DNA from: a virus
Lineage: Duplodnaviria; Caudoviricetes
Reading direction: 5' to 3' (one strand)
Virus record (IMG/VR): IMGVR_UViG_3300037222_000065
Location: 1 to 24,054 of that record
Length of the DNA stretch: 24,054 nt
Part shown: positions 4,066 to 23,589 of the stretch, one piece after another
Position numbering within the stretch: the first letter of the stretch is position 1
How the letters are laid out: every line of letters begins with the position of its first letter
Notes under the pieces: generated by a model
The model's input: only the letters and a program-made list of their open reading frames with translations
Told to the model about the DNA's origin: nothing
The model's database searches: none
Translations under genes and position numbers: made by a program

Positions 4066-4069
4066 TCCC

Positions 4070-4308
4070 AAGGTTAGGAAGGTAGGGCAGAGGTTGGGAA
4101 CCCTGCAAGCCTCGCCCATGGCTGATGTTCCTAACCTTCCTAACCTTCCCTACCTGTCTCTCATGTGTGCGAGCATGCGCCCGCGCATATACGCGCGCGT
4201 GTACGTAACTCGTTTTACGTTGGGAAGGTTAGGAAGGTTAGGAAGATTGGCTTGTTTATTGGCTTGCAGGGTTCCCAACCTCGGCTTTAGGTTGGGAAGG
4301 TTGGGAAG
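4070..4308. repeat. Putative replication origin: AGGTTRGGA iterons in both orientations plus a 22-bp perfect inverted repeat
   Basis: GAGGTTGGGAACCCTGCAAGCC (4090-4111) and its reverse complement (4261-4282); multiple AGGTTAGGA/AGGTTGGGA/TCCTAACCT 9-mers; directly after the helicase gene. Confidence 0.75.
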
Positions 4309-4341
4309 CTGCTTAAATTTACAAGGAGATTTGCGATAACC

Positions 4342-5464: not shown

Positions 5465-6800
5465 ATGTTGATTGAATACCGGAGCGTTGAGGCGTTGGTG
5501 CCTTATGCTCGGAACAGCCGGACGCATAGTGATGCGCAGGTTGCGCAGATCATGGCGGCGATGGTTGAGTTTGGGTGGACGAATCCGGTGCTGGCGGATG
5601 GCGATGGGATTGTCGCGGGGCACGGGCGGGTGATGGCGGCGTCCAGGTTGTATGAGCAGGGCGAGACGATACGGTTGCCTGGTGGTGATGAGGTTCCTGA
5701 CGGGATGGTGCCAGTGATCGATTGCACCGGATGGTCGGTAGTGCAGCGCAAGGCTTATATCATCGCGGACAATCGGCTGGCTGAAAATGCCGGATGGGAT
5801 TCGGCGATGCTGGCGCTGGATATCGGCGACCTGCGCGAGTGCGGGTTCGATGTCGGGTTGACCGGTTTCAACGATGCGGATCTGAATGCGCTGATCGCGC
5901 CGAAAGGAAATGCAGGGCTGACCGATCCGGACGACGTGCCGGAAGTACAGCCCGATCCGATCAGTAGGCTGGGCGACTTGTGGCTGATGGGCAAGCATCG
6001 GTTGATGTGTGGCAGCAGCACCGAAGCTGAAACGGTAGAAAGGCTGCGGGGGGGGGGCGATACCAATCCTGATGGTGACCGACCCGCCTTACGGGGTGAG
6101 CTACGATGCAAGCTGGCGCCTTGCAGCGGGCATAAATAAATCATGGCAAACCCGCGCTGAGGGGAAGGTACTAAACGATGATCGGGTAGATTGGTCAGAG
6201 GCATGGGCATTATTTCCCGGCGATGTATTTTATTGCTGGCATGCCGACCGGCATGCCAGCGCGGTGCAAGCGTCGATGGAATCCGCTGGGTTTGAAATCC
6301 GCTCGCAAATCATATGGGCAAAAAATTCACTGGTAATGGGCCGAGGACATTATCACTGGCAACATGAGCCTTGCTGGTACGCCGTGAGGAAGTCCGCGAC
6401 TGGGCATTGGGTCGGTGACCGGAAGCAGTCAACACTTTGGCAAATCGCAAACATGCATCGAACACAAGGCGATGTGGACGACGGCAAGACTAGTCATTCC
6501 ACGCAAAAGCCGATCGAGTGCATGAAACGCCCCATCGAAAACAACAGCAGTCCCGGCGATAGTGTTTACGACCCGTTCGTTGGCAGCGGCACCACGATCA
6601 TCGCTGCCGAAATGATGGGGCGTTGTTGCTATGCCATCGAATTGAACCCAGCGTATGTGGATGTTTGCGTGCGCCGCTGGCAAAACTTCACCGGCCAGCA
6701 GGCCACGCTCGAATCTGATGGGCGCACTTTTGATGAGATATCGGCAGAAAGGATTCAGGCAGCACGATGCGAGGCAGAACACCAACTCCAACCAAGCTGA
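5465..6800 (+). pseudogene. ParB-like nuclease domain / N6-N4 DNA methyltransferase fusion, frameshifted at G10 tract 6048-6057
   Basis: ORF 5465-6139: LVPYARNSRTH..FGWTNPVL..IVAGHGRV..ADNRLAENAGWD..GDLWLMGKHRLMCG. ORF 6072-6800 in the +1 frame: TDPPY, HSTQKP, VYDPFVGSGTT. G9 would give one 444-aa protein. Confidence 0.85.
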
Positions 6801-11543: not shown

Positions 11544-11614
11544 AAATCCCCCTCCGCTACGCTCCTCCCCCTTTGCAAAAGGGGGAGAGCTTGCGAGGGG
11601 GCCGAGGGGGATTT
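11544..11614. repeat. REP-like palindrome family B, copy 1 (intergenic)
   Basis: AAATCCCCCTC...TCCCCCTTT-GCA-AAAGGGGGA...GAGGGGGATTT; related copies at 21170-21240 and 22194-22227. Confidence 0.85.
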
Positions 11615-12009: not shown

Positions 12010-13423
12010 TAATTCGCTGACCAAGGTATTGTTCAACGGGCTGATGCGCGCCAAAAGTCAGACCCTCAACGCCGTGAATTCCGGCGGCGGCTGGTTCGGC
12101 ATATTGCGCGAACCGTTCGGCGGCGCGTTCCAGGCGAACATCGCGATCGATGCGCCGCGCCGCATCCTGGCATTTTCCGGCGTCTTCAGTTGCGCCACCA
12201 TCATCTCCACCGACATCGCCAAGATGGGCATCAACCTGACGCAGGAAGATTCAGTCGGGATACACACCAAAGTCAAGACCAATTCGCCGTTCCTCGGCGT
12301 GCTGAAAAAACCCAACCATTACCAGACCTGGTACAAATTCATCGAGCAATGGATACTCTCCAAGCTGCTCACCGGCAACACCTATGCGCTCAAGTTGCGC
12401 GACGGGCGCGGCATCGTCACCGACCTGTATATCCTCGACTCGCAGCGCGTCACACCGCTGGTGGCGGACAACGGCGACGTGTATTACAAGCTGTCGAAGG
12501 ATTGCCTGTCCATCCTGCCCGAGCCGGTCACCGTGCCGGCCAGCGAGATCATCCACGACATGATGGTCAGCCTGTGGCATCCGCTGGTGGGCGTCACGCC
12601 GATCTATGCGTGCGGCGTTTCCGCCACAATGGGCAACCGCATCACCGCCAACAGCACCGCGTTTTTCGAGAACATGAGCCGCCCCTCCGGCAGCCTCACC
12701 GCGCCCGGCAACATCACGGACGAAACGGCTACCCGGCTCAAGGCGACCTTTGAAGAAAATTTCAGCAACGGCAAGCTCGGGCGGCTGATGGTTGCAGGCG
12801 ATGGGCTGGCATACCAACCGATGACCATCAACGCCATCGATGCACAACTCATCGAACAGTTGAAGTGGACCATCGAAGACGTGGCGCGCTGCTTCCATGT
12901 GCCCATGTACAAGCTGGGCGGACCGGAGCCGGTGCGCGTCAGCGTCGAATCGCTGAATCAGACCTACTATTCCGATTGCCTGCAAGGGCTGATCGAATCC
13001 GTAGAATCACTGCTGGACGACGGGCTATCGCTGCCATCCGGATTCCATGCCGAATTCGACCTCGACAACCTGATGCGCATGGACAGCGCGACACGCCTCA
13101 AGACCAATGGACAAGCGGTGCGCGATGGCATCCTCGCGCCCAACGAAGCGCGCGCGGTCGAAGATTTGCAACCCGTCAAGGGAGGCGATTCTGTCTACAT
13201 GCAGCAACAGAACTACTCGCTCGAAGCGCTGGCCAAGCGCGACGCGCTAGCCGATCCATTCGCCGGCAGCAACAAGGCGCCTGCAGAACCCTCTCCCGCC
13301 GGGGGAGGGCAGGGTGGGGGAGCGAACGATGCCACTGCGGCGAATGATGCCCAGGCAACGCAACAAGCTGCCGCACTCGCCGAGCTGATCATCAAGGGTT
13401 TGGCCGAACCCGCCATCGCCTGA
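12002..13423 (+). CDS. Portal protein, HK97 family
   Basis: VFSCATIISTDIAK, KPNHYQT, LLTGNTY, EIIH, FFENMSRPSG, DVARCFHVP, PNEARAVEDL. Confidence 0.95.
   Translation: MADNSLTKVLFNGLMRAKSQTLNAVNSGGGWFGILREPFGGAFQANIAIDAPRRILAFSGVFSCATIISTDIAKMGINLTQEDSVGIHTKVKTNSPFLGVLKKPNHYQTWYKFIEQWILSKLLTGNTYALKLRDGRGIVTDLYILDSQRVTPLVADNGDVYYKLSKDCLSILPEPVTVPASEIIHDMMVSLWHPLVGVTPIYACGVSATMGNRITANSTAFFENMSRPSGSLTAPGNITDETATRLKATFEENFSNGKLGRLMVAGDGLAYQPMTINAIDAQLIEQLKWTIEDVARCFHVPMYKLGGPEPVRVSVESLNQTYYSDCLQGLIESVESLLDDGLSLPSGFHAEFDLDNLMRMDSATRLKTNGQAVRDGILAPNEARAVEDLQPVKGGDSVYMQQQNYSLEALAKRDALADPFAGSNKAPAEPSPAGGGQGGGANDATAANDAQATQQAAALAELIIKGLAEPAIA
13285..13328. repeat. REP-like palindrome family A, copy 1 (in frame in the portal C-terminus)
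   Basis: AGAACCCTCTCCCGCCGGGGGAGGGCAGGGTGGGGGAGCGAACG; encodes EPSPAGGGQGGGAN. Confidence 0.9.
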
Positions 13424-14295: not shown

Positions 14296-14969
14296 AATTT
14301 ATACTGGAACGCACCGTCGATCCTGACATTGAACCAATTTTATTGGCCGAGATGAAAGCACATCTCAGGGTCACCGATACCGACAACGATACCCTTATCA
14401 CCGGGCTGATCACCGGCGCGCGCGAATGGGTTGAGGACTACACCGGCCGCGCGCTGATCGACCAGACCTGGCGGCTCACGCTGGCCGGCAAATATCACGG
14501 CTACATCGGCGGCGATAGCGTCGGCGGATACCGTCCGGGATATTACACCTACGGTGCCGGCACGCGCGACATGGAATACTGGATACGCGGCGGCGAGATA
14601 CTGTTGCGCAAAGCGCCGGCGCTCTCGCTGATCTCGTTCAAGTCCGTGGACAACGCCGGGGTCGAGACCGCCATCGACGCGGCTTATTATCAATTGCGCG
14701 AGATCGATTCAAAATGGCCGCGCATCGTGCCGCTGAACGGCGCGACCTGGCCCGCCTGCAGCGACCTGCGCATCGTTTACCGCGCCGGCTTCGCCGACCG
14801 CGATTCCAGCCCGCAACAAGACGGGGCAGCCGTTCCGTTCAGGTTCAAGCAAGCGATGAAACTATGGGCCGAAGCGAACTACGATCGCGATGATAAAACC
14901 ATGCAGCTTTACCTGGACACCGCCGAACTGCTGATCAAATCGGAACGATCGGAAATGGGAATGGCTTGA
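14292..14969 (+). CDS. Head-tail connector (HK97 gp6 / phiE125 gp8-like)
   Basis: EPILLAEMKAHLRV..DTLITGLITGAREWVEDYTGRALIDQTW..YRAGF..VP..FKQAM..YDR; ATG at 14292 overlaps the upstream stop. Confidence 0.9.
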   Translation: MKFILERTVDPDIEPILLAEMKAHLRVTDTDNDTLITGLITGAREWVEDYTGRALIDQTWRLTLAGKYHGYIGGDSVGGYRPGYYTYGAGTRDMEYWIRGGEILLRKAPALSLISFKSVDNAGVETAIDAAYYQLREIDSKWPRIVPLNGATWPACSDLRIVYRAGFADRDSSPQQDGAAVPFRFKQAMKLWAEANYDRDDKTMQLYLDTAELLIKSERSEMGMA

Positions 14970-14995
14970 CAACCTATCCCAAAATGGGATAGTAT
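14966..14995 (+). promoter_or_regulatory. Moron promoter with embedded operator
   Basis: TTGACA (14966-14971), 18-bp spacer, TAGTAT (14990-14995); palindrome CTATCCCA-AAA-TGGGATAG (14974-14992). Confidence 0.7.
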
Positions 14996-15050: not shown

Positions 15051-15230
15051 ATGTCAACTCAGAATGAAAAAATGAAAAATAATCTTCTGGATATCGCAGA
15101 AGCTATTGACAAATTATTTGATCAAAACTTCGATGAAATATTAATCAATGAATATGGTGAGATAGTTGATTATCTATTACTAACCGCAAATGCTATAGAT
15201 CAAAAATTTGTTGTGGCTGCGGCGCGATGA
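15051..15230 (+). CDS. Small acidic hypothetical protein (59 aa)
   Basis: Not in the track. MSTQNEKMKNNLLDIAEAIDKLFDQNFDEIL...; AT-rich; ATGA overlap with the next ORF. Confidence 0.65.
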   Translation: MSTQNEKMKNNLLDIAEAIDKLFDQNFDEILINEYGEIVDYLLLTANAIDQKFVVAAAR

Positions 15231-15475
15231 ACACTGAAAATAAAACGAAGAATGATGAACCGCAGTCCCTCTCGACTGCTGAGTTGGACGCTGAGATTAA
15301 ACACTATCAATGTTTAGTTGAATTTGCAGAGCGTGAAGTGAATGCGGGTAATGAAAGAATTAGAGCTTACCTTGAAAGCTATGCGAATCATCGTGACTCA
15401 TTGCAAATACGGCGTAATGCAATGGTGGCTAACGTAGAGTTGAGCACCAGCCAACAGCGCGAGGAGAAACCATGA
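15227..15475 (+). CDS. Hypothetical protein, cassette-like ORF ending within attC
   Basis: 82-aa ORF; the C-terminus ANVELSTSQQREEKP is encoded by an attC arm. Confidence 0.65.
   Translation: MNTENKTKNDEPQSLSTAELDAEIKHYQCLVEFAEREVNAGNERIRAYLESYANHRDSLQIRRNAMVANVELSTSQQREEKP
15262..15289 (-). other. Truncated attC half-site (R''-spacer-L'')
   Basis: Minus strand GTCCAAC-tcagc-AGTCGAGA-GGGACTGC; no complementary arm visible. Confidence 0.55.
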
Positions 15476-15531
15476 GTAAAACTAAAGAACCTATCACGCT
15501 GTTGGCTGTGCGCTCGAACGCCGGGTTGGGC
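15427..15531 (-). mobile_element. Integron-type attC recombination site (105 bp)
   Basis: Minus strand: R'' GCCCAAC, 5 nt, L'' GTTCGAGC, stem GCACAGCCAACAGCGTGA / TCGCGCTGTTGGCTGGT, L' GCTCAAC, 5 nt, R' GTTAGCC; two unpaired bases in the R''-L'' arm. Confidence 0.82.
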
Positions 15532-15795
15532 GAAGTTTATGCCATCCCCGACTTTTTACGCAACCCTGCAAACTTAGCAAAGGAAAGAAAAATGGAAAAA
15601 GCAGAACTGCAAGAATTAGTACATGCCGCCCTTGGGGAACTCATCGACAGAATTGAATTGTGTGGAGCATCTGAAAAACTTACCCACGCTGTGACGCTTG
15701 CCGCTGACCTACGGCAGGCTGTTGGCAACCAATGGAACACACCGGATGAGTATGCAAAGAAAAGAGTGCTGGCGGTGTTGCCCAACGTAAAGTAG
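15472..15795 (+). CDS. Hypothetical protein, cassette ORF starting within the attC loop
   Basis: SD GAGGAG and ATG lie in the attC centre; the body is bounded by GTTGGGC (15525-15531) and GCCCAAC (15780-15786). Confidence 0.7.
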   Translation: MSKTKEPITLLAVRSNAGLGEVYAIPDFLRNPANLAKERKMEKAELQELVHAALGELIDRIELCGASEKLTHAVTLAADLRQAVGNQWNTPDEYAKKRVLAVLPNVK

Positions 15796-15804
15796 ACCCC
15801 TGTA

Positions 15805-15975
15805 ATGGAAGGATCGGAACTCAAAGCATTACGCAAAAAACTTAATCTGTCGCTCGCCCAGGCAAGCAGGCAGGTTGAGGTTTCCGTCTCGACTTGGTGC
15901 CGGTGGGAATCTGGCAAACAGAAAATTCCAGAGGGTGCGATGAAACTATTTAAGCTGCTGAACAAAATCAAATAA
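15805..15975 (+). CDS. Small XRE-family HTH regulator (56 aa)
   Basis: Not in the track. MEGSELKALRKKLNLSLAQASRQVEVSVSTWCRWESGKQKIP. Confidence 0.85.
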   Translation: MEGSELKALRKKLNLSLAQASRQVEVSVSTWCRWESGKQKIPEGAMKLFKLLNKIK

Positions 15976-15997
15976 CAACAGCAACACCACACACAAG

Positions 15998-16023
15998 GCC
16001 GTCCAGAATTGGGCGGCTTTTTT
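15998..16023 (+). terminator. Intrinsic terminator closing the moron
   Basis: GCCGTCCA-GAAT-TGGGCGGC followed by T6. Confidence 0.75.
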
Positions 16024-16052
16024 ATTGGAGAAAATATTTGGGAATTATATAG

Positions 16053-16502
16053 ATGACTACCATAAGAGAACTAGAAGGGCAATTACTGCGATGCGCTAAA
16101 GAGACAACTCAGGAAAAGGACGTGGATGGGAAATACGTGTTCAGAGATCCAGATGGCTCTATTCACATGTGGTCTAGTGAAGCAGAACATTGGGTATTTG
16201 AACGTGTTGATAAAGTTGCAGAATCGCACGGGATCAGCTTCTTGTGCCCCAAGGCATTCGCAAAGAATGGTGGGCCAAAGGGCACGCATTCCGTGTACGT
16301 GTTCTTCACAGGATCGCCCTACGCCGGCCACAATACTGCTGGGCAAGAGGTACGATGGCAGGTGGTCGGAGGTACGACGATTGACGATCTTGTATTAACG
16401 CCGTCAATTCAAGAACAAGATGAAGAATTGCCGCCTGAGCATCGGTGCAGTTGGCATGGCTTCGTAGGCTCAAGCGGCGTACCGCCCGGTTCTGCGGCAT
16501 AA
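16053..16502 (+). CDS. Putative Cys/His metal-binding protein (DUF6527-like)
   Basis: FLCP...H...W...DLVLTPSI...C.WHGFV motif set; family recognised by eye. Confidence 0.5.
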   Translation: MTTIRELEGQLLRCAKETTQEKDVDGKYVFRDPDGSIHMWSSEAEHWVFERVDKVAESHGISFLCPKAFAKNGGPKGTHSVYVFFTGSPYAGHNTAGQEVRWQVVGGTTIDDLVLTPSIQEQDEELPPEHRCSWHGFVGSSGVPPGSAA

Positions 16503-16509
16503 GGTAGTT

Positions 16510-17256
16510 ATGTATATAAATCCCAAATATTTGATCCTTCGGCGATTGCATGACCGCTTCAGCGAAGTCATCCCTGAATGGCAGGGCAAGACCGCCGTGC
16601 TGATCGGCGCCGGCGCCAGCCTCACCGCGATGCAGGTCGCCCAGGTGCATGCCGCGCATGTTGGCGGCAATGTCATGGCCGTCGCGATCAACGACTGTTA
16701 TTTATGGTGTGACTGGGCGGACGTGCATTACGCGGCGGATGCCAAGTGGCACAAGTGGCACACCGAAGGACTGGACAAACCGCTGCTCAGGATGACCGCC
16801 GCGCAGGTGCGCGAAGCATGGGCAACCTTCGCAGGGCAGAAATGCAGCATCCAGGACAGCATGGACGGCATCGCGGATGACACAGTGCACATCCTGCGCA
16901 ACAAGAGCTATCCGAACCACGCGCACGGACTATCGCGCGATCCGCAGGCATTGGGCACCGGCTGGCACAGCGGCTTCCAGGCGCTGAACCTCGCGATACT
17001 GGCAGGGGCGAAGACCATCATCCTGCTGGGCTTCGATGGCAAGCCGTCGCAGGAAGGCCGCACGCATTTTTTCGGCGAGCACCCAAGCCCGACCAACCCG
17101 GCGGTCTTCGAACAGATCCGCCGTTCTTTTTCGGCGGCGGAAAACGAGATCAAGGAATTGGGCGTGCGCGTGATCAACTGCTCGCCGGGAAGTGCGATCG
17201 ATTCGTTTGAGAAGATGGAATTGGGTGAAGCGCTTAGAAGCAGACGTAAGACGTAA
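16510..17256 (+). CDS. Maf/DUF115 (MptE-like) glycosyltransferase-like protein
   Basis: GKTAVLIGAGASL, AVAINDC, HYAAD, SGFQALNLAILAGAKTIILLGFD, VINCSPGS. Confidence 0.7.
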   Translation: MYINPKYLILRRLHDRFSEVIPEWQGKTAVLIGAGASLTAMQVAQVHAAHVGGNVMAVAINDCYLWCDWADVHYAADAKWHKWHTEGLDKPLLRMTAAQVREAWATFAGQKCSIQDSMDGIADDTVHILRNKSYPNHAHGLSRDPQALGTGWHSGFQALNLAILAGAKTIILLGFDGKPSQEGRTHFFGEHPSPTNPAVFEQIRRSFSAAENEIKELGVRVINCSPGSAIDSFEKMELGEALRSRRKT

Positions 17257-17277
17257 GTTGTTAAAAGGAAGAAAATC

Positions 17278-17568
17278 ATGGCAGAGATTAAAAAAATAGA
17301 CATCAAAGAATTTAGGGAACTCGGATTTTTACAGGAAATAAACCGCCTTTTTCTTCACCCTTTGGGCATGGCGCTAGAGGTGATACTTGAAGATGATGGA
17401 ACGGAAAAACTTGGTGGCATTTGGGACTATCGAGACGACCCAGAAGGAATGATTTACGGAGAAATGGACGACACAAGTAAATCTAAAATTGCTTTCTTCA
17501 AAGAATTTGCCGAAAGAAAGCACGCGGAGAGATTAAAGCGGCTTGGGTACATCATTCAAGAACCATAA
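17278..17568 (+). CDS. Hypothetical phage protein (AT-rich insert)
   Basis: SD AAGGA; IKEFRELGFLQEINRLFLHPLGMALEV..GGIWDYRDDPEG; codon usage differs from neighbours. Confidence 0.75.
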   Translation: MAEIKKIDIKEFRELGFLQEINRLFLHPLGMALEVILEDDGTEKLGGIWDYRDDPEGMIYGEMDDTSKSKIAFFKEFAERKHAERLKRLGYIIQEP

Positions 17569-17585
17569 TGACGCACGGGGAGCAC

Positions 17586-17666
17586 AACCCTCTCCCACCG
17601 GGGGAGGGCAGGGTAGGGGAGCGCTCCCTCACCTCAATCCTCTCCCGTAAGGAGAGGAAGCAAACG
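17586..17666. repeat. REP-like palindrome family A, copy 2 (long, paired form)
   Basis: AACCCTCTCCCACCGGGGGAGGGCAGGGTAGGGGAGCGCTCCCTCACCTCAATCCTCTCCCGTAAGGAGAGGAAGCAAACG. Confidence 0.9.
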
Positions 17667-17682
17667 TGAAAGGCATCACAAG

Positions 17683-18459
17683 TTGACGAAACGAATACGC
17701 GGCGGCAGCGGGCTGGGCGATTCGATCTACCTGCGCCCGCTGGTCGAGCAATTGATCGCGGACGGCGAACAGGTGACGGTCTGCTCCAATTATCCCGATG
17801 TGTTTATCGGCACCGGCGCGACGGTCGAGCCATTTGGGCGCAACAATATCCAGGTGCTGGCGCATTACACGGCAGGAAAGAGCGATCCGGCCACCAACCA
17901 GTGGCAGGACATCTGCCGCAGCGCGCGCATGACTGCCGAGCTGCGCTTCGCTTGGATCGTGCGCAACACCGCGTTGGCGGACAAACTGCGCACCCGCGCC
18001 TTCGGGCGCAAGATCATCCTGGTGCATGGCGGGCGCGCGCCGATGGGGCGCACTGACGGCTTCGGCGCGGAGTTGCTGCCGGACGCGCAGGCTTTTGACG
18101 CCGTGCTGCGCGAGTTGGGCGATTGCATGCTGGTGCGCATCGGCAATGGCGCGGAACTTTATCCGCTGCCCACCGAGATCAACCTGAACGGCAGCACCTC
18201 GGTATCCGACGTGCTCGATGTAGGCAGGATCTGCGACGGCGTGGTCGCGCAATGCTCGTTCGCGATACCGCTGGCCGAAGCGTTCGACAAGCCGCTGCTG
18301 ATCGTATGGGCCGCGCGCGGACTGGTTGCACGCGAAGCCTATGTCCGGCAGATCACCCCGCAAAAGGTATTGAGCAAGCCATCCTCGACGTTCGTGATGG
18401 ATGACTGGCCGATGGAACAGATACAGGAGACAGCACGGCAATGGCATCCCGGTTTATAA
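17683..18459 (+). CDS. GT-B glycosyltransferase, GT9/heptosyltransferase-like
   Basis: N-terminal GGSGLGDSIYLRPL; INLNGSTSVSDVLD..ICDGVVAQCSFAIPLAEAFDKPLLIVW. Confidence 0.7.
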   Translation: MTKRIRGGSGLGDSIYLRPLVEQLIADGEQVTVCSNYPDVFIGTGATVEPFGRNNIQVLAHYTAGKSDPATNQWQDICRSARMTAELRFAWIVRNTALADKLRTRAFGRKIILVHGGRAPMGRTDGFGAELLPDAQAFDAVLRELGDCMLVRIGNGAELYPLPTEINLNGSTSVSDVLDVGRICDGVVAQCSFAIPLAEAFDKPLLIVWAARGLVAREAYVRQITPQKVLSKPSSTFVMDDWPMEQIQETARQWHPGL

Positions 18460-19196
18460 ATTTCGAACAAGCTGCTGAAAGCCTGCGCGGCAAGTCGATT
18501 GCTGTGGTCGGCAGCGCGCCGTCGGTGCTGGACAATGCGCCGGGCTTCATCGATTCCCACGACATCGTGGTGAGGGTGAACAACTACAAGACCGGCGCGG
18601 CGCAGGGCACGCTCTGCGACGTACATTATAGTTTTTATGGTACGAGCATCCGCAAGCGCGCCGAAGACCTGCAAGCGGACGGCGTGCAACTGTGTATGTG
18701 CAAATGTCCGAACGCCAGGGCGCTGGAATCGGCATGGCATGAGGCCAACAACAAGATCAACGGCATCGACTTTCGCTACATCTACCACAACCGCAAGGAC
18801 TGGTGGTTCACCGATACATTTATCCCGTCAGTGGAGCATTTTCTGAGGGGATTCGAGCTGCTCGGCAAGCACATCCCGACCACCGGATTCTCCGCCATCC
18901 TCGACGTGCTGGCGTGCGAGCCCGGCAGCGTGTACCTGACCGGCTTCGATTTCTTCACCTCCGGGCTGCACAACGTGGATGAGGCATGGAAGCCGGGCAA
19001 CCCGAACGACCCGATCTGCCACCGCCCGGATCTGGAGATGGCATGGCTGCGCAAGAATCTGCACAAACATCCTGTCTCGTTTGATAAAAAACTGGGCGAT
19101 ATGCTGGTGCAGAACCCTCTCCCACCGGGGGAGGGCAGGGTGGGGGAGCGCTCCCTCACCTCAATCCTCTCCCGAGGGGAGAGGAGGCAAACGTGA
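18441..19196 (+). CDS. GT29 sialyltransferase-like protein
   Basis: Sialylmotif-L-like IAVVGSAPSVL..GFIDSHDIVVRVNN; S-like PTTGFSAILD..VYLTGFDFF; VS-like H..DLE. Confidence 0.72.
   Translation: MASRFINFEQAAESLRGKSIAVVGSAPSVLDNAPGFIDSHDIVVRVNNYKTGAAQGTLCDVHYSFYGTSIRKRAEDLQADGVQLCMCKCPNARALESAWHEANNKINGIDFRYIYHNRKDWWFTDTFIPSVEHFLRGFELLGKHIPTTGFSAILDVLACEPGSVYLTGFDFFTSGLHNVDEAWKPGNPNDPICHRPDLEMAWLRKNLHKHPVSFDKKLGDMLVQNPLPPGEGRVGERSLTSILSRGERRQT
19111..19193. repeat. REP-like palindrome family A, copy 3 (long form; forms the gene end, SD and GTG start)
   Basis: Near-identical to copy 2; ends GAGAGGAGGCAAAC-GTGA. Confidence 0.9.
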
Positions 19197-19747
19197 AAGA
19201 CGGAAACCCTTTATTTGAATACCATGGCGAACTGTTTCCGGAATACCTGAAACACGGTAACGCGATGCAATTCATCGCACCGGCGGCTCTGCAATTCTGC
19301 AAGGGCAACGGCCTCGATGTCGGCTGCAGCCAATGGCCGTTGCCTGGCGCTGCCGGGCATGACCTGAAAAATGGTACCGATGCAACCAACCTGCCGCCGG
19401 GCGAATGGGACTACATCTTTAGCTCGCATTGCCTCGAGCATGTGCTCGACCCGGTCACGGTGCTGGAGCACTGGAAGACGCGGTTGGTCAAGGGCGGCAC
19501 ACTGTTCCTGTATTTGCCGCACCCGGACATGACCTACTGGCGGCCGCAGCATTGCCGCAAGCATTTGCACCTGTTCTGGCCCGATGATGTCGCCGAGATG
19601 CTGCGCGCCCTCGGATTTGTAAACATCATCCACAGCGAGCGCGATCTCGCGTGGAGTTTTGCTGTCGTCGCGTTCAATGGAGCAGAACCCTCTCCCACCG
19701 GGGGAGGGCAGGGTGGGGGAGCAAACGTGAAAGACGAAAAACAATGA
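19193..19747 (+). CDS. Class I SAM-dependent methyltransferase
   Basis: GLDVGC, DYIFSSHCLEH, LVKGGTLFLYLP. Confidence 0.85.
   Translation: MKDGNPLFEYHGELFPEYLKHGNAMQFIAPAALQFCKGNGLDVGCSQWPLPGAAGHDLKNGTDATNLPPGEWDYIFSSHCLEHVLDPVTVLEHWKTRLVKGGTLFLYLPHPDMTYWRPQHCRKHLHLFWPDDVAEMLRALGFVNIIHSERDLAWSFAVVAFNGAEPSPTGGGQGGGANVKDEKQ
19684..19727. repeat. REP-like palindrome family A, copy 4 (in frame at the C-terminus)
   Basis: Encodes EPSPTGGGQGGGAN. Confidence 0.9.
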
Positions 19748-20298
19748 CGAACATGCACGACAAGATCGTCGCGCAGCACGGCCAGAAAATGCTGCGCAAG
19801 AGCGCAATGAATATTCGCGGTGGTGCTGGCGTATTCGAGCGCGTGCTGTCCGGCAAAGGGTATCGCACCGCACTGGAGATCGGCACCTATCGCGGCGTCT
19901 CTGCCGCAGAGATGTCGCAATACGTCGAGCGCGTGATCACCATCGACCTGCGCTACGGCAAGCTGGAATCGAATGGCGACAGCTTCGATCGCGCCATCTT
20001 CTGGTACGAACTGGACGCGAACAACATCGAATTGCAACTGGTGGACGACGACATCGAAAAGAAAGCGCTGATCGATGTGCTGGACTTCGATTTCGCCTTC
20101 ATCGACGGCGCGCATACCGGCGGCGCTATTGTGCGGGATTTCGAGATGGTGAAGCGCTGCGGAACGGTTCTGATTCACGACTACGACGACAACGGGCGCG
20201 GTCGGTTATTCAATGAGGCTTTCGATTTCGTCAACTCACTCCCGAAGGAACAAGTGCAAATATTCGATATCTTCGCGCTCTGGACAGCGCCATGCTGA
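19744..20298 (+). CDS. SAM-dependent O-methyltransferase (Methyltransf_24-like)
   Basis: ALEIGTYRGVSA, FDFAFIDGAH, VLIHDY; ATG at 19744 overlaps the upstream stop. Confidence 0.85.
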   Translation: MTNMHDKIVAQHGQKMLRKSAMNIRGGAGVFERVLSGKGYRTALEIGTYRGVSAAEMSQYVERVITIDLRYGKLESNGDSFDRAIFWYELDANNIELQLVDDDIEKKALIDVLDFDFAFIDGAHTGGAIVRDFEMVKRCGTVLIHDYDDNGRGRLFNEAFDFVNSLPKEQVQIFDIFALWTAPC

Positions 20299-20969
20299 AC
20301 GAGCGCATCCGGGCGAACGGCGATGAGGAGGCCATTGTCGGCGAGATCACCTTCGGGCCGTTTTCCAGCCCGCTGATGAAGGCGATCTTCAAGCGCTTCG
20401 GCAAGAAAGCGTTCGGGCGGTCGAGCGCGTGCGCTGAGTTCGAGAGCTTTCTTCACGCCATCGCTGACGAGCGAAGCGCGGAATTCGTCATGAAACGAGT
20501 GGGCAAGAAACCTCTCGGAGATTGCTGCCTTGAGATCGGCACCTTCCACGGTATCACCGCGATCATCCTGTCGCAGTTTTTCGACAAGGTGATCTGCGTC
20601 AGCGTTGACGAAATGCCGGTGATGAAGCGCGAGATTGTGGATTATCTCGGCATCAAGAATATCGCGTTCTACGATGCGAAGGACAACAAGGACAAGGCCG
20701 CGTTCATCAACGCCGCGAAGTTCGATTTCTGCTATCAGGACGGCGACCACACGCACGATACTTATAGCGATTTCGATCTGGTGAAGCGCTGCGGGCGCGT
20801 GCTGTTCCACGAATTTTGGCCGCTGCAAGCGCCGGTCTGGAACCTGGTCAACAGCCTGCCGCAGGACGAAGTTATTCATGCGCAATTCGATTGCCTCGCC
20901 TATTGGGAGAAGAACCCTCTCCCATCGGGGGAGGGCAGGGTGGGGGAGATAGGGTCGATCAATGGATAG
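20292..20969 (+). CDS. SAM-dependent O-methyltransferase, paralog of the preceding gene
   Basis: LEIGTFHGITA, FDFCYQDGDH, DFDLVKRCGRVLFHE. Confidence 0.8.
   Translation: MLNERIRANGDEEAIVGEITFGPFSSPLMKAIFKRFGKKAFGRSSACAEFESFLHAIADERSAEFVMKRVGKKPLGDCCLEIGTFHGITAIILSQFFDKVICVSVDEMPVMKREIVDYLGIKNIAFYDAKDNKDKAAFINAAKFDFCYQDGDHTHDTYSDFDLVKRCGRVLFHEFWPLQAPVWNLVNSLPQDEVIHAQFDCLAYWEKNPLPSGEGRVGEIGSING
20911..20948. repeat. REP-like palindrome family A, copy 5 (in frame at the C-terminus)
   Basis: AGAACCCTCTCCCATCGGGGGAGGGCAGGGTGGGGGAG; encodes NPLPSGEGRVGE. Confidence 0.9.
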
Positions 20970-22206
20970 GCTGATCAAGCGCCTAGACGCAACGCCTGAC
21001 GCCGACCTGATACTCTGTGCCGCGCATGGTATTGCGTACCAGGCCGACATGAAATCCGGCCGGGTGAAATACGACGCAAGCTATCTGGCCAAGGTCGACG
21101 CCTATGAGGGCGGCGCGATCGCGAAGGCCGTCAATGCCGGGCGCTGTGCCCTGCTGGGCAGACATCTGCAAATCCCCCTCAGTCCCCCTTTGGAAAAGGG
21201 GGAGAGCTTGCGAGGGGGCCAGCGCAGCGGAGGGGGATTTTCGGTGCTTGACGTGGGCTCCGGTTCGGGTGCGTTTGTCCGGGCGGCAAAGGCTGCCGGA
21301 TTCAATGCAAGCGGATGGGACGTTATTCCTGATGCCGTGGCAAGGTTGTTACAGGACGGGACGTATGCCGACGACCCCGCCACCTTCGACGCAGTGACCT
21401 TGTGGGATACGTTGGAGCACATGGAAGACCCGGAGCTGCGATTGCGCCAGGTGAGCAAGGGCGCGCTGCTGTTCGTGTCCATTCCGGTATTCGACGATCT
21501 TGGCAAGATCAGGGAATCAAAGCATTATCGTCCCGGCGAACACTTGTATTACTGGACCGCGCAGGGTTTCATCGACTGGATGTCGCTGTACGGGTTCCGC
21601 CTGCTGGAACAGAGCGATCACGAGACCGCGGCCGGACGCGAGAGCATCGGCGCGTTCGCCTTCTGTCGAGACCTGCCTGATTACGGGGAACACATTGTCG
21701 CTTATCGCGAAATTCACTCGACGCGGCACTATGGAAGCTCGGCAACAGATTTGCATTTGGCGCAGATCGCCAAGATGGTACAGACGTATGCACCAGCCTC
21801 GATACTGGATTACGGCTGCGGGCGCAGCGACCTCGCGGCGCACTTCTGGCTTGACGGCGCGCGCCGCATCGCGCGCTATGACCCGGCCATCCCGGCGTTC
21901 AAGACGATGCCAGACGGCCGGTTTGACATGGTGCTGGTCTGCGACGTGATGGAACACATCCCGATGGCCTCGGTCGATCGCGTACTGAAAGAGGTACACG
22001 AAAAAAGCAGCCTGGCACTGTTCACCATCAGCACCAAGCTGGCGCGCGCCAAATTGCCGGACGGCCGCAACGCCCATGTCACGTTGCTGACGAAAAGCGA
22101 ATGGATCAACTGGTTGGCGGACGAATTTGGCAAGGTAGAAGTGTTGCCATCCGAATGGGAACACGAACTTATTTTGCTTGCGGGTAGCAGTTCTCCCCCT
22201 TTGTAA
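20962..22206 (+). CDS. Two-domain class I SAM methyltransferase
   Basis: Domain 1 VLDVGSGSG/DAVTLWDTLEH; domain 2 ILDYGCGRS/DMVLVCDVMEH. Confidence 0.85.
   Translation: MDRLIKRLDATPDADLILCAAHGIAYQADMKSGRVKYDASYLAKVDAYEGGAIAKAVNAGRCALLGRHLQIPLSPPLEKGESLRGGQRSGGGFSVLDVGSGSGAFVRAAKAAGFNASGWDVIPDAVARLLQDGTYADDPATFDAVTLWDTLEHMEDPELRLRQVSKGALLFVSIPVFDDLGKIRESKHYRPGEHLYYWTAQGFIDWMSLYGFRLLEQSDHETAAGRESIGAFAFCRDLPDYGEHIVAYREIHSTRHYGSSATDLHLAQIAKMVQTYAPASILDYGCGRSDLAAHFWLDGARRIARYDPAIPAFKTMPDGRFDMVLVCDVMEHIPMASVDRVLKEVHEKSSLALFTISTKLARAKLPDGRNAHVTLLTKSEWINWLADEFGKVEVLPSEWEHELILLAGSSSPPL
21170..21240. repeat. REP-like palindrome family B, copy 2 (in frame, internal to the methyltransferase)
   Basis: Encodes QIPLSPPLEKGESLRGGQRSGGGF just before SAM motif I. 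Confidence 0.88.
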
Positions 22207-22227
22207 AAGGGGGACTGAGGGGGATTT
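22194..22227. repeat. REP-like palindrome family B, copy 3 (short)
   Basis: TCCCCCTTTGTAAAAGGGGGACTGAGGGGGATTT; contains the TAA of the methyltransferase and the G-rich SD of the next gene. Confidence 0.85.
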
Positions 22228-22229
22228 GA

Positions 22230-22583
22230 ATGAAAGCCGGAGCGTTGAACCACCTTATTACCCTGCAATCGCGCAGCACCAGCCAGGATGCCTCCGGTGG
22301 ACAACTGCTCACATGGTCCGACGTGACCACCGTGTGGGCCAATGTCAATCCGCTCAGCGGGCGAGAGTTGCTCGCCGCGCAGGCGGTGCAATCGTCCGTA
22401 TCGCACCGGATCACCATCCGTTACCAGACACAATTCGCCGATCCCAAAGTGATGGCGAAGATGCGCGCAACGATGGTCAAGGATGGCGTGACGCGCATTT
22501 TTAATATACACGCAGCGCGCGACGAAAACGAAGCGCGCCACAAAATCATCATGGATGCGGAAGAGGGAATCAACAATGGCTAG
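22230..22583 (+). CDS. Head closure / head-tail adaptor (SPP1 gp16-like)
   Basis: MKAGALNHLITLQ..QDASGG..W.DVTTVWANVNPLSGRELLAAQ..HRITIRY. Confidence 0.92.
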   Translation: MKAGALNHLITLQSRSTSQDASGGQLLTWSDVTTVWANVNPLSGRELLAAQAVQSSVSHRITIRYQTQFADPKVMAKMRATMVKDGVTRIFNIHAARDENEARHKIIMDAEEGINNG

Positions 22584-23468: not shown

Positions 23469-23481
23469 ATTTTCTACTATC

Positions 23482-23562
23482 AGAACCCTCTCCCACCGGG
23501 GGAGGGCAGGGTGGGGGAGCACCCTCACCTCAATCCTCTCCCGGCGGGAGAGGAAGCAAACG
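23482..23562. repeat. REP-like palindrome family A, copy 6 (long form, intergenic)
   Basis: AGAACCCTCTCCCACCGGGGGAGGGCAGGGTGGGGGAGCACCCTCACCTCAATCCTCTCCCGGCGGGAGAGGAAGCAAACG. Confidence 0.9.
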
Positions 23563-23589
23563 AAGCGCTGCGCGCAATAAAAACATATT

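Follow-up and report, generated by a model that had tools for sequence, protein, structure and literature searches.

Integrons are treated as bacterial devices whose gene cassettes face away from attI. The described systems that come closest to the phage locus analyzed here are the sedentary chromosomal integrons of Betaproteobacteria (for example L025, L053 and L115), which have the same attC boxes and spacers, the same attI core, the same complementarity between R'' and that core, and the same order of attI, cassette and attC on one strand. In contrast to these integrons, the locus has no intI or Pc beside attI, where an HTH gene follows instead; its genes are antisense to attC, with starts inside the attC loop and stops given by attI; the accessory repeats are absent; and its attC is 105 nt long, compared with 54-69 nt for most of the bacterial sites seen. 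Set against a complete integron, its promoter lies at the far end from attI and its genes are not co-oriented with attC. In the available sections of PMC8946536, the integrase IntI is described as recombining a folded bottom-strand attC with a double-stranded attI at G/TT, and intI as SOS-regulated.

Three further systems bear on the comparison. Qi et al. (2023) reported CALINs in phages, attC sites without an integrase, of which five phage attC recombined with attI1, as well as an attI heading the CALIN of the inactive Shewanella prophage M16-3 (PMC9892861, accessible parts). The phage cassettes in that work are bacterial-like, and the accessible main and supplementary text does not describe antisense genes, translated sites or a stop supplied by attI. 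The two-site rule for a CALIN leaves out the present locus, with one complete attC and a remnant, whereas it takes in phage records of 12-15 sites; a locus with one site and antisense genes, like this one, is missed by this rule as used in the published phage screen. According to studies of attG and Delta-attI sites, IntI can act on short or partial double-stranded sites (bioRxiv 10.1101/2022.09.11.507474 and PMC12901181, in the portions available); the attI-side site of our locus (site C) differs from a random GWT in being an attI core that recurs at the end of phage arrays, and its position is upstream of the cassette rather than that of attC. Lastly, acr-aca operons share with the locus a promoter with an inverted repeat, small uncharacterized genes, an HTH gene in last position and insertion among head genes (PMC13551039, available text), whereas no known Acr was found in the cargo of our locus, and its HTH protein matches only positions 1-52 of the 118 positions of Aca2_YdiL. 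We found no description of antisense translated cassettes or of attI as the end of a phage operon in the literature within reach, which takes in few of the subscription papers, and the available parts of PMC8876359 and PMC13676570 contain nothing on antisense cassettes or attI operon ends.

The locus works like an integron cassette at attI and is neither a complete integron nor, by count, a CALIN. It and its relatives show that phages carry the same attI core and attC family with reversed genes and with no integrase found. If host IntI acts on these sites, phages could gain and swap small accessory genes site-specifically, and some of the mosaicism of phages would be explained in this way. The exact bacterial attI match names the cognate integrase (L053/L115), and the idea is therefore directly testable with the 353-bp cassette of the locus.

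Phage setting and inserted operon

The window, the whole stretch of 24,054 nucleotides that was analyzed, has the gene content of a temperate phage, with VapE-like, terminase, capsid, portal and head-tail adaptor genes and a glycosyltransferase-/methyltransferase-like block. A record identical to it (G006) runs 6.7 kb further and carries a large serine recombinase beside tRNA-Glu and tRNA-Ala, and the window is therefore part of a prophage; the completeness of the prophage record is 44%. The attC-bearing stretch, with a GC content of 0.39-0.49 against ~0.6 around it, lies between the adaptor and a glycosyltransferase-like gene. Because these two genes abut in six of eight relatives (adaptor 45-64% identical), the operon stretch is an insertion among the head genes. 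One of the remaining two relatives carries a different insert that includes a reversed HTH gene, and in the other the contig stops before the junction; an attC was found in none of the eight. Since L010 holds at the same junction an independent insert (5695-6092, minus strand) of a small ORF and an HTH gene in reverse orientation, without attC, this junction may be an insertion hotspot. The elements of the inserted operon are as follows.

14966-14995, plus strand: predicted sigma-70-type promoter (TTGACA, -10 near 14990; 10/12 matches, a level common by chance)
15051-15230, plus strand: 59-aa ORF, first gene of the operon, its stop overlapping the next start
15215-15289, minus strand: broken attC (site A), with R'', L'' and inner stem present and L' and R' missing
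15227-15475, plus strand: gene 1, 82 aa, antisense to attC, stopping in the loop of site B
15427-15531, minus strand: site B, the complete attC of 105 bp, with its crossover at 15433/15432
15433-15785, minus strand: 353-bp gene cassette from crossover to crossover, its R'' an exact complement of the attI-side core (L100)
15472-15795, plus strand: gene 2, 107 aa, antisense to attC, with a leader encoded by the attC arm and a stop given by the attI core
15780-15800, minus strand: attI core by its sequence (site C), with R box GTTGGGC, 5-nt spacer and L box, without accessory direct repeats
15805-15975, plus strand: HTH protein of 56 aa, encoded last in the operon and predicted to be its autorepressor
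15995-16030, plus strand: hairpin resembling an intrinsic terminator, at the end of the operon

Between the promoter hexamers, at 14974-14992, lies a perfect inverted repeat that is the predicted operator of the HTH protein. This protein matches Pfam HTH_31 (E 1.5e-8) and, over the positions given above, Aca2_YdiL (E 2.6e-7), and finds 97 proteins at E<=1e-8; PADLOC matches are generic HTH matches or weak. Eight other viral loci, three of them from one phage, encode HTH proteins 69-83% identical to it, and the same promoter with its repeat precedes related HTH genes in five of seven loci tested with a pattern drawn from these same loci. The eight promoter-HTH loci carry quite different cargo without a detected attC, and neither attI nor attC was found in the related HTH operons. 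The insert is thus predicted to be a self-repressing accessory operon, one that is, by analogy, built like an acr-aca operon. Four of the loci with HTH genes (L084, L088, L090 and L091) have long GC-rich tracts of 5-nt repeats 200-400 nt upstream of the HTH gene, with cargo beyond them.

None of the three cargo ORFs belongs to a Pfam or PHROG family; Atlas matches of the 59-aa ORF at 0.8 are leads only. In one DNA run (X12), read depth was 249 over 15525-15819 compared with 90-112 beside it, and the contig ends carry library adapter letters. In RNA run X16, from one study with the strand not given, a single 310-nt contig (15496-15805, depth 445) begins at the 3' arm of the hairpin and covers gene 2, while its flanks are uncovered. 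This contig hints at expression over gene 2, and may be the amplification of few molecules or a library artefact; with z scores of +1.9 and +1.0 it is not a structured RNA.

A complete attC site in antisense to the genes

Site B is a genuine attC. Read on the minus strand from 15531 to 15427, it consists of R'' (GCCCAAC), a 5-nt spacer, an 8-nt L'', a 7-nt L', a second 5-nt spacer and R' (GTTAGCC), with L'' and L' pairing at 7/7 positions once the extra base is removed. The extrahelical G16 (15516) and T23 (15509), both on the bottom (plus) strand, fit the rule of Bouvier et al., which in the available text calls for an extrahelical G in L'' and a T 6-8 nt further on the bottom strand (PMC2727003). 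In the circular cassette R'' would face the native R' GTTGGGC, to which it is complementary at 7/7 bases; in the integrated R' GTTAGCC, six bases come from the neighbor. R'' and the native R' fit the attC core patterns RYYYAAC and GTTRRRY, and both spacers lie in the 5-6 nt range of attC sites. A structural scan of both strands of the 24 kb returned site B as the sole complete attC, and its DNA fold has z = -4.4 on the minus strand and -2.7 on the plus strand. We also built a covariance model (R1) from 25 bacterial attC sites that do not match the search pattern; it scores site B at 39.6 bits (E 3.1e-8) on the minus strand only, with the next best hit in the window at 10 bits, in a test that is not fully independent because the training arrays were found through sites like site B. 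The canonical boxes and two extrahelical bases that a first-pass annotation of this DNA had described are therefore present, and the score of our own covariance model agrees with them. The "attC array" of the same annotation was an overstatement for this locus, which holds a single complete attC beside the remnant of a broken one and an attI lacking accessory repeats.

A pattern taken from the arms of site B matches 22 stretches of bacterial genomes, mostly of Betaproteobacteria and many in arrays, and in four of five genomes tested among those with such sites an IntI scored over the family cut-off. Chromosomal arrays of Betaproteobacteria share the box and spacer sequences of site B as well. 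The same long type of attC is present with unrelated cargo in two other phages (L047 and L048), and a Shine-Dalgarno sequence (SD) and ATG stand at the same loop position in 3/3 phage versions; one pattern scan of genomes returned this long type, with its loop SD and ATG, from phage records only. Three compensatory stem changes separate the phage versions (three sequences only). The loop of site B is 2 nt longer than the others, and R'' is therefore crossed in another frame, which is still open into the cargo. Just inside the L box, site B has an A-C mismatch where both homologous phage sites have G-C, and its R box has a pairing probability of 0.27 compared with 0.99 and 0.70 in these two homologues.

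Rfam gave nothing at gathering level and four weak chance matches, neither the islet nor the attI junction had a match among annotated phages, and a plasmid search gave five short matches, one of which is an attC arm in Azoarcus. A match in L002/L003 (28 nt inside a DNA methylase-like gene) and a promoter match in L048 (17 nt, inside a gene) were set aside as chance.

The loop of site B holds GAGGAG at 15461-15466, ATG at 15472 and an overlapping TGA at 15473-15475, bearing out the earlier proposal that it supplies the stop of gene 1 and the SD and start of gene 2. Both ORFs also read through the attC arms, as had been claimed, and from the open frames these arms would be translated. Gene 1 crosses the AAC of the crossover in frame, and in gene 2 the AAC at 15784-15786 is likewise in frame. 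The orientation follows from gene 2, since its conserved domain protein is on the plus strand, opposite to attC: the cassette genes are antisense to attC. A 151-aa minus-strand ORF over gene 2 has no Pfam match.

After its leader, gene 2 carries a widespread helical phage domain of ~58 aa. At E<=0.001 it finds 97 proteins (itself included), nearly all over residues ~45-104, and this domain recurs among phages as a module attached to many different proteins. The predicted structure comprises three helices, with low confidence for residues 1-30, and had no fold match. No attC was detected at 20 viral loci encoding relatives of the domain (E<0.05), these being the loci scanned from a set of 22 that also held gene 2 itself and one other. 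Another possible start, preceded by an SD of its own, is present at 15592, near the start of many homologues, and for this reason the loop ATG (15472) may not be the main start of gene 2. A presumed resemblance of gene 2 to a Tad1/Acb2-type sponge was unsupported by Pfam, PDB sequences, Foldseek and the Atlas.

Gene 1 has no relatives other than itself. Its start and leader are supplied by site A, of which 12 nt are kept before the ATG. The first-pass annotation placed a truncated attC half at 15262-15289; such a remnant is present and is longer (15215-15289). Over 76 nt, site A shares 87% identity with a complete attC of a different phage record (G008, L081 5569-5660), which leads a gene unrelated to gene 1. 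With R1 it scores only 7.2 bits, and its R'' agrees with the next junction at only two of four variable bases.

An attI core at the end of the operon

On the other side of the cassette, GTTGGGC at 15786-15780 is the exact complement of the R'' of site B. The complementarity of this boundary had already been pointed out in the first-pass annotation, which missed its identity as attI, and likewise the operon of promoter, operator and HTH gene around it. Site C, which ends 5 nt after the stop of gene 2, is a 16-nt attI match whose motif occurred in 0/200 shuffles of the window. The motif was found 114-161 nt upstream of an intI 5' end in 10/10 bacterial rows (nine places in four genomes), namely eight copies in three genomes from a search of 151 genomes of the family of L053, together with two earlier rows, one row being a duplicate; only two of the nine places hold most of intI. 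In L053 the motif lies 115 nt upstream of an intact intI, facing away, with two direct repeats between. Because the same motif precedes an intI 5' end at all of the bacterial places, the boundary at 15780-15800 is, as judged by its sequence, an attI core. The idea that site C is half of a broken attC was dropped once the motif had been found upstream of intI. One bacterial genome (G004, L110-L114) holds six copies of the motif, five of them followed by only 5' fragments of intI.

The motif was found in 16 viral stretches, one of which is this phage. Of the other 15, an attC follows within 600 bp, on the strand expected, in ten; two are cut off by contig ends, and the remaining three are without an attC over this distance. 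At the attI junction of nine independent phage loci with different cassettes, the R'' of the first attC matches the core at 35/36 variable bases, compared with a shuffled expectation of 21.7 (p 1e-4). The comparison of related phages at G/TT that had been suggested thus gave different cassettes at the same attI across phages, and no such difference at this locus. Open frames of at least 40 codons run into the attI stop in 10/15 phage stretches, versus 2-8 codons in three bacterial ones, and the first ORF past the crossover is in sense in 9/10 bacterial attI rows. Accessory direct repeats are present in 3/3 bacterial rows and 6/15 other phage stretches. Since the other nine of these 15 also lack them (at <=2 mismatches), their absence at site C is not a sign of inactivity.

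To the left of the window, the extension of the identical record (L082 1715-1745 in G006) contains a second attI-like core, with AAT replacing AAC, which forms the end of an early gene of 83 aa (..P-N-V-K-stop) directly ahead of the serine recombinase. A nearby attC was not detected, and this core is possibly a decayed dock at the end of an early operon.

Mirror arrays in other phages and the search for an integrase

Other phage records hold longer arrays of this attC family, with 12 sites in G007, 12 in G008 and 15 in G011. Junction complementarity in phage arrays is 62/72 bases (35.1 when shuffled), and in bacterial arrays 71/76 (46.6 when shuffled). By a crude longest-ORF rule, the gene is antisense to attC in 12/18 and 11/17 phage cassettes versus 2/19 bacterial ones, and inspection suggests that some of the phage "sense" assignments are shadow frames.

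No IntI match was found in the window, in agreement with the first-pass annotation, nor in L082 (8 kb from the identical record) or G006. The same holds for 18 phage records (13 with the attI motif and five others), of which only two are at least 90% complete; one of these two (G016) contains 12 attC sites. The earlier suggestion of a phage-encoded IntI thus finds no support in any of these records. The broader claim of phage-adapted cassette shuffling holds for the presence in phages of attC sites, antisense genes and G/TT joints, and finds no support as far as ongoing shuffling at this locus goes.

Mirror arrays at L048 3628-3966 and L047 4343-5035 carry cargo that includes an MT-A70 methyltransferase and an ORF without a Pfam family, which we take to look like a Tad1/Acb2-type sponge.

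Origin of the locus

The account that we favor, and consider moderately probable, is that the locus represents the terminal part of a mirror integron array of phages, into which host IntI inserted the cassette at attI, and which was later copied into the operon. The end piece would comprise the broken attC, gene 1, the complete attC, gene 2 and the attI core. IntI would recombine attC, in the form of its folded bottom strand, with double-stranded attI at G/TT, and the host enzyme likely inserted the 353-bp cassette in this way at the phage-borne core. Because the genes face opposite to those of normal cassettes, each new cassette would come to lie at the far end of the operon. For a reversed gene, the loop of its own attC would provide the ribosome-binding site and start, and attI (..N-V-K-stop) or the next attC would provide the stop, so that a new cassette gene would be coupled to the preceding one. 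The array end was probably then copied into the HTH operon, keeping little beyond its translated part, and the promoter-operator-HTH unit would express and limit the cargo in the manner of acr-aca operons. We infer this order of events, since the relatives found include no close one in which the same operon is free of the cassette. Because both ends are cut close to the coding ends, further shuffling at the locus is probably slow, and we regard it as probably a transplanted, low-activity piece of an integron or CALIN.

A live miniature platform, whose attI core still captures and releases cassettes in place by means of host IntI, would be in keeping with the intact R and L boxes of site C and the perfect junction, and with the cassette removed, gene 1 would run in frame to the stop given by attI. 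Shortened attI sites are substrates of IntI1, with one construct giving no significant excision (PMC12901181, accessible part), and in the available text of PMC8946536 the DR repeats favor attI1 x attC recombination and are not described as essential. However, all matches to the locus are 100% identical copies, and no excision joint at the crossover was found in eight of the 19 listed runs (contigs only, and thus weak evidence). Site A is moreover broken, site B has its mismatch beside the L box and its low R-box pairing, and the related operons are devoid of attI and attC, all of which make continuing activity at this locus rather unlikely in our judgment.

We regard it as improbable that the locus is an ordinary bacterial cassette with an inverted ORF and a bit of attI, or an off-target insert at a GWT site (attG), with no phage-adapted system involved. 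The equality of boxes and spacers with bacterial arrays would be expected of such a cassette, IntI inserts at GWT sites in either direction (bioRxiv 10.1101/2022.09.11.507474, available part), and pieces of host integrons borne by prophages are known (PMC9892861, accessible parts). In contrast, the long attC with SD and ATG in its loop came only from phage records in the one genome scan, both leaders have homologues in phage arrays, site C extends over 16 nt of attI match and is not a bare GWT, and bacterial cassettes at this attI are in sense (9/10). Finally, that the hairpin is mainly an RNA element for translation control or processing, with a historical or chance likeness to attC, is very improbable: the mRNA strand across it does fold well (z -3.4) and the contig of X16 begins at its 3' arm (one study), but the site has the features of DNA recombination, namely its extrahelical bases, the spacing of its boxes, its model score and the complementarity of its junction, and an RNA role could add to an attC origin without replacing it.

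Returning to the origin from a phage mirror array, a wider scheme may be put forward tentatively, though we consider it rather unlikely: betaproteobacterial phages would keep an integrase-free mirror integron, in which a borrowed attI core closes the operon and gives the stop codon while each cassette brings its start within attC, and to which SOS-induced host IntI adds genes on infection or induction. At this locus the dock would be built into an Aca-like operon and would still swap anti-defense genes.

Other features of the window

The glycosyltransferase-/methyltransferase-like block (16510-22206) lies between the head-tail adaptor and head-closure genes and is kept in relatives. Direct and inverted repeats clustered directly after the VapE-like gene (4066-4309) may be a replication origin. 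REP-like palindromes occur at 13283-13328, 17579-17672, 19106-19199, 19682-19727, 20909-20954 and 23475-23568, with further ones at 11566-11603, 21169-21245 and 22189-22231, and several of them are read through as the ends of late genes (portal, modification genes). At the start of the glycosyltransferase-like gene, a 485-bp unit (16040-16524) with terminal inverted repeats is flanked by an 8-bp target duplication, AAATATTT. It holds a 149-aa ORF of no known family and no transposase, and its ends may resemble those of the IS1595 family. The same unit is present in contigs of runs X13 and X14, in another context and with a different 8-bp duplication.
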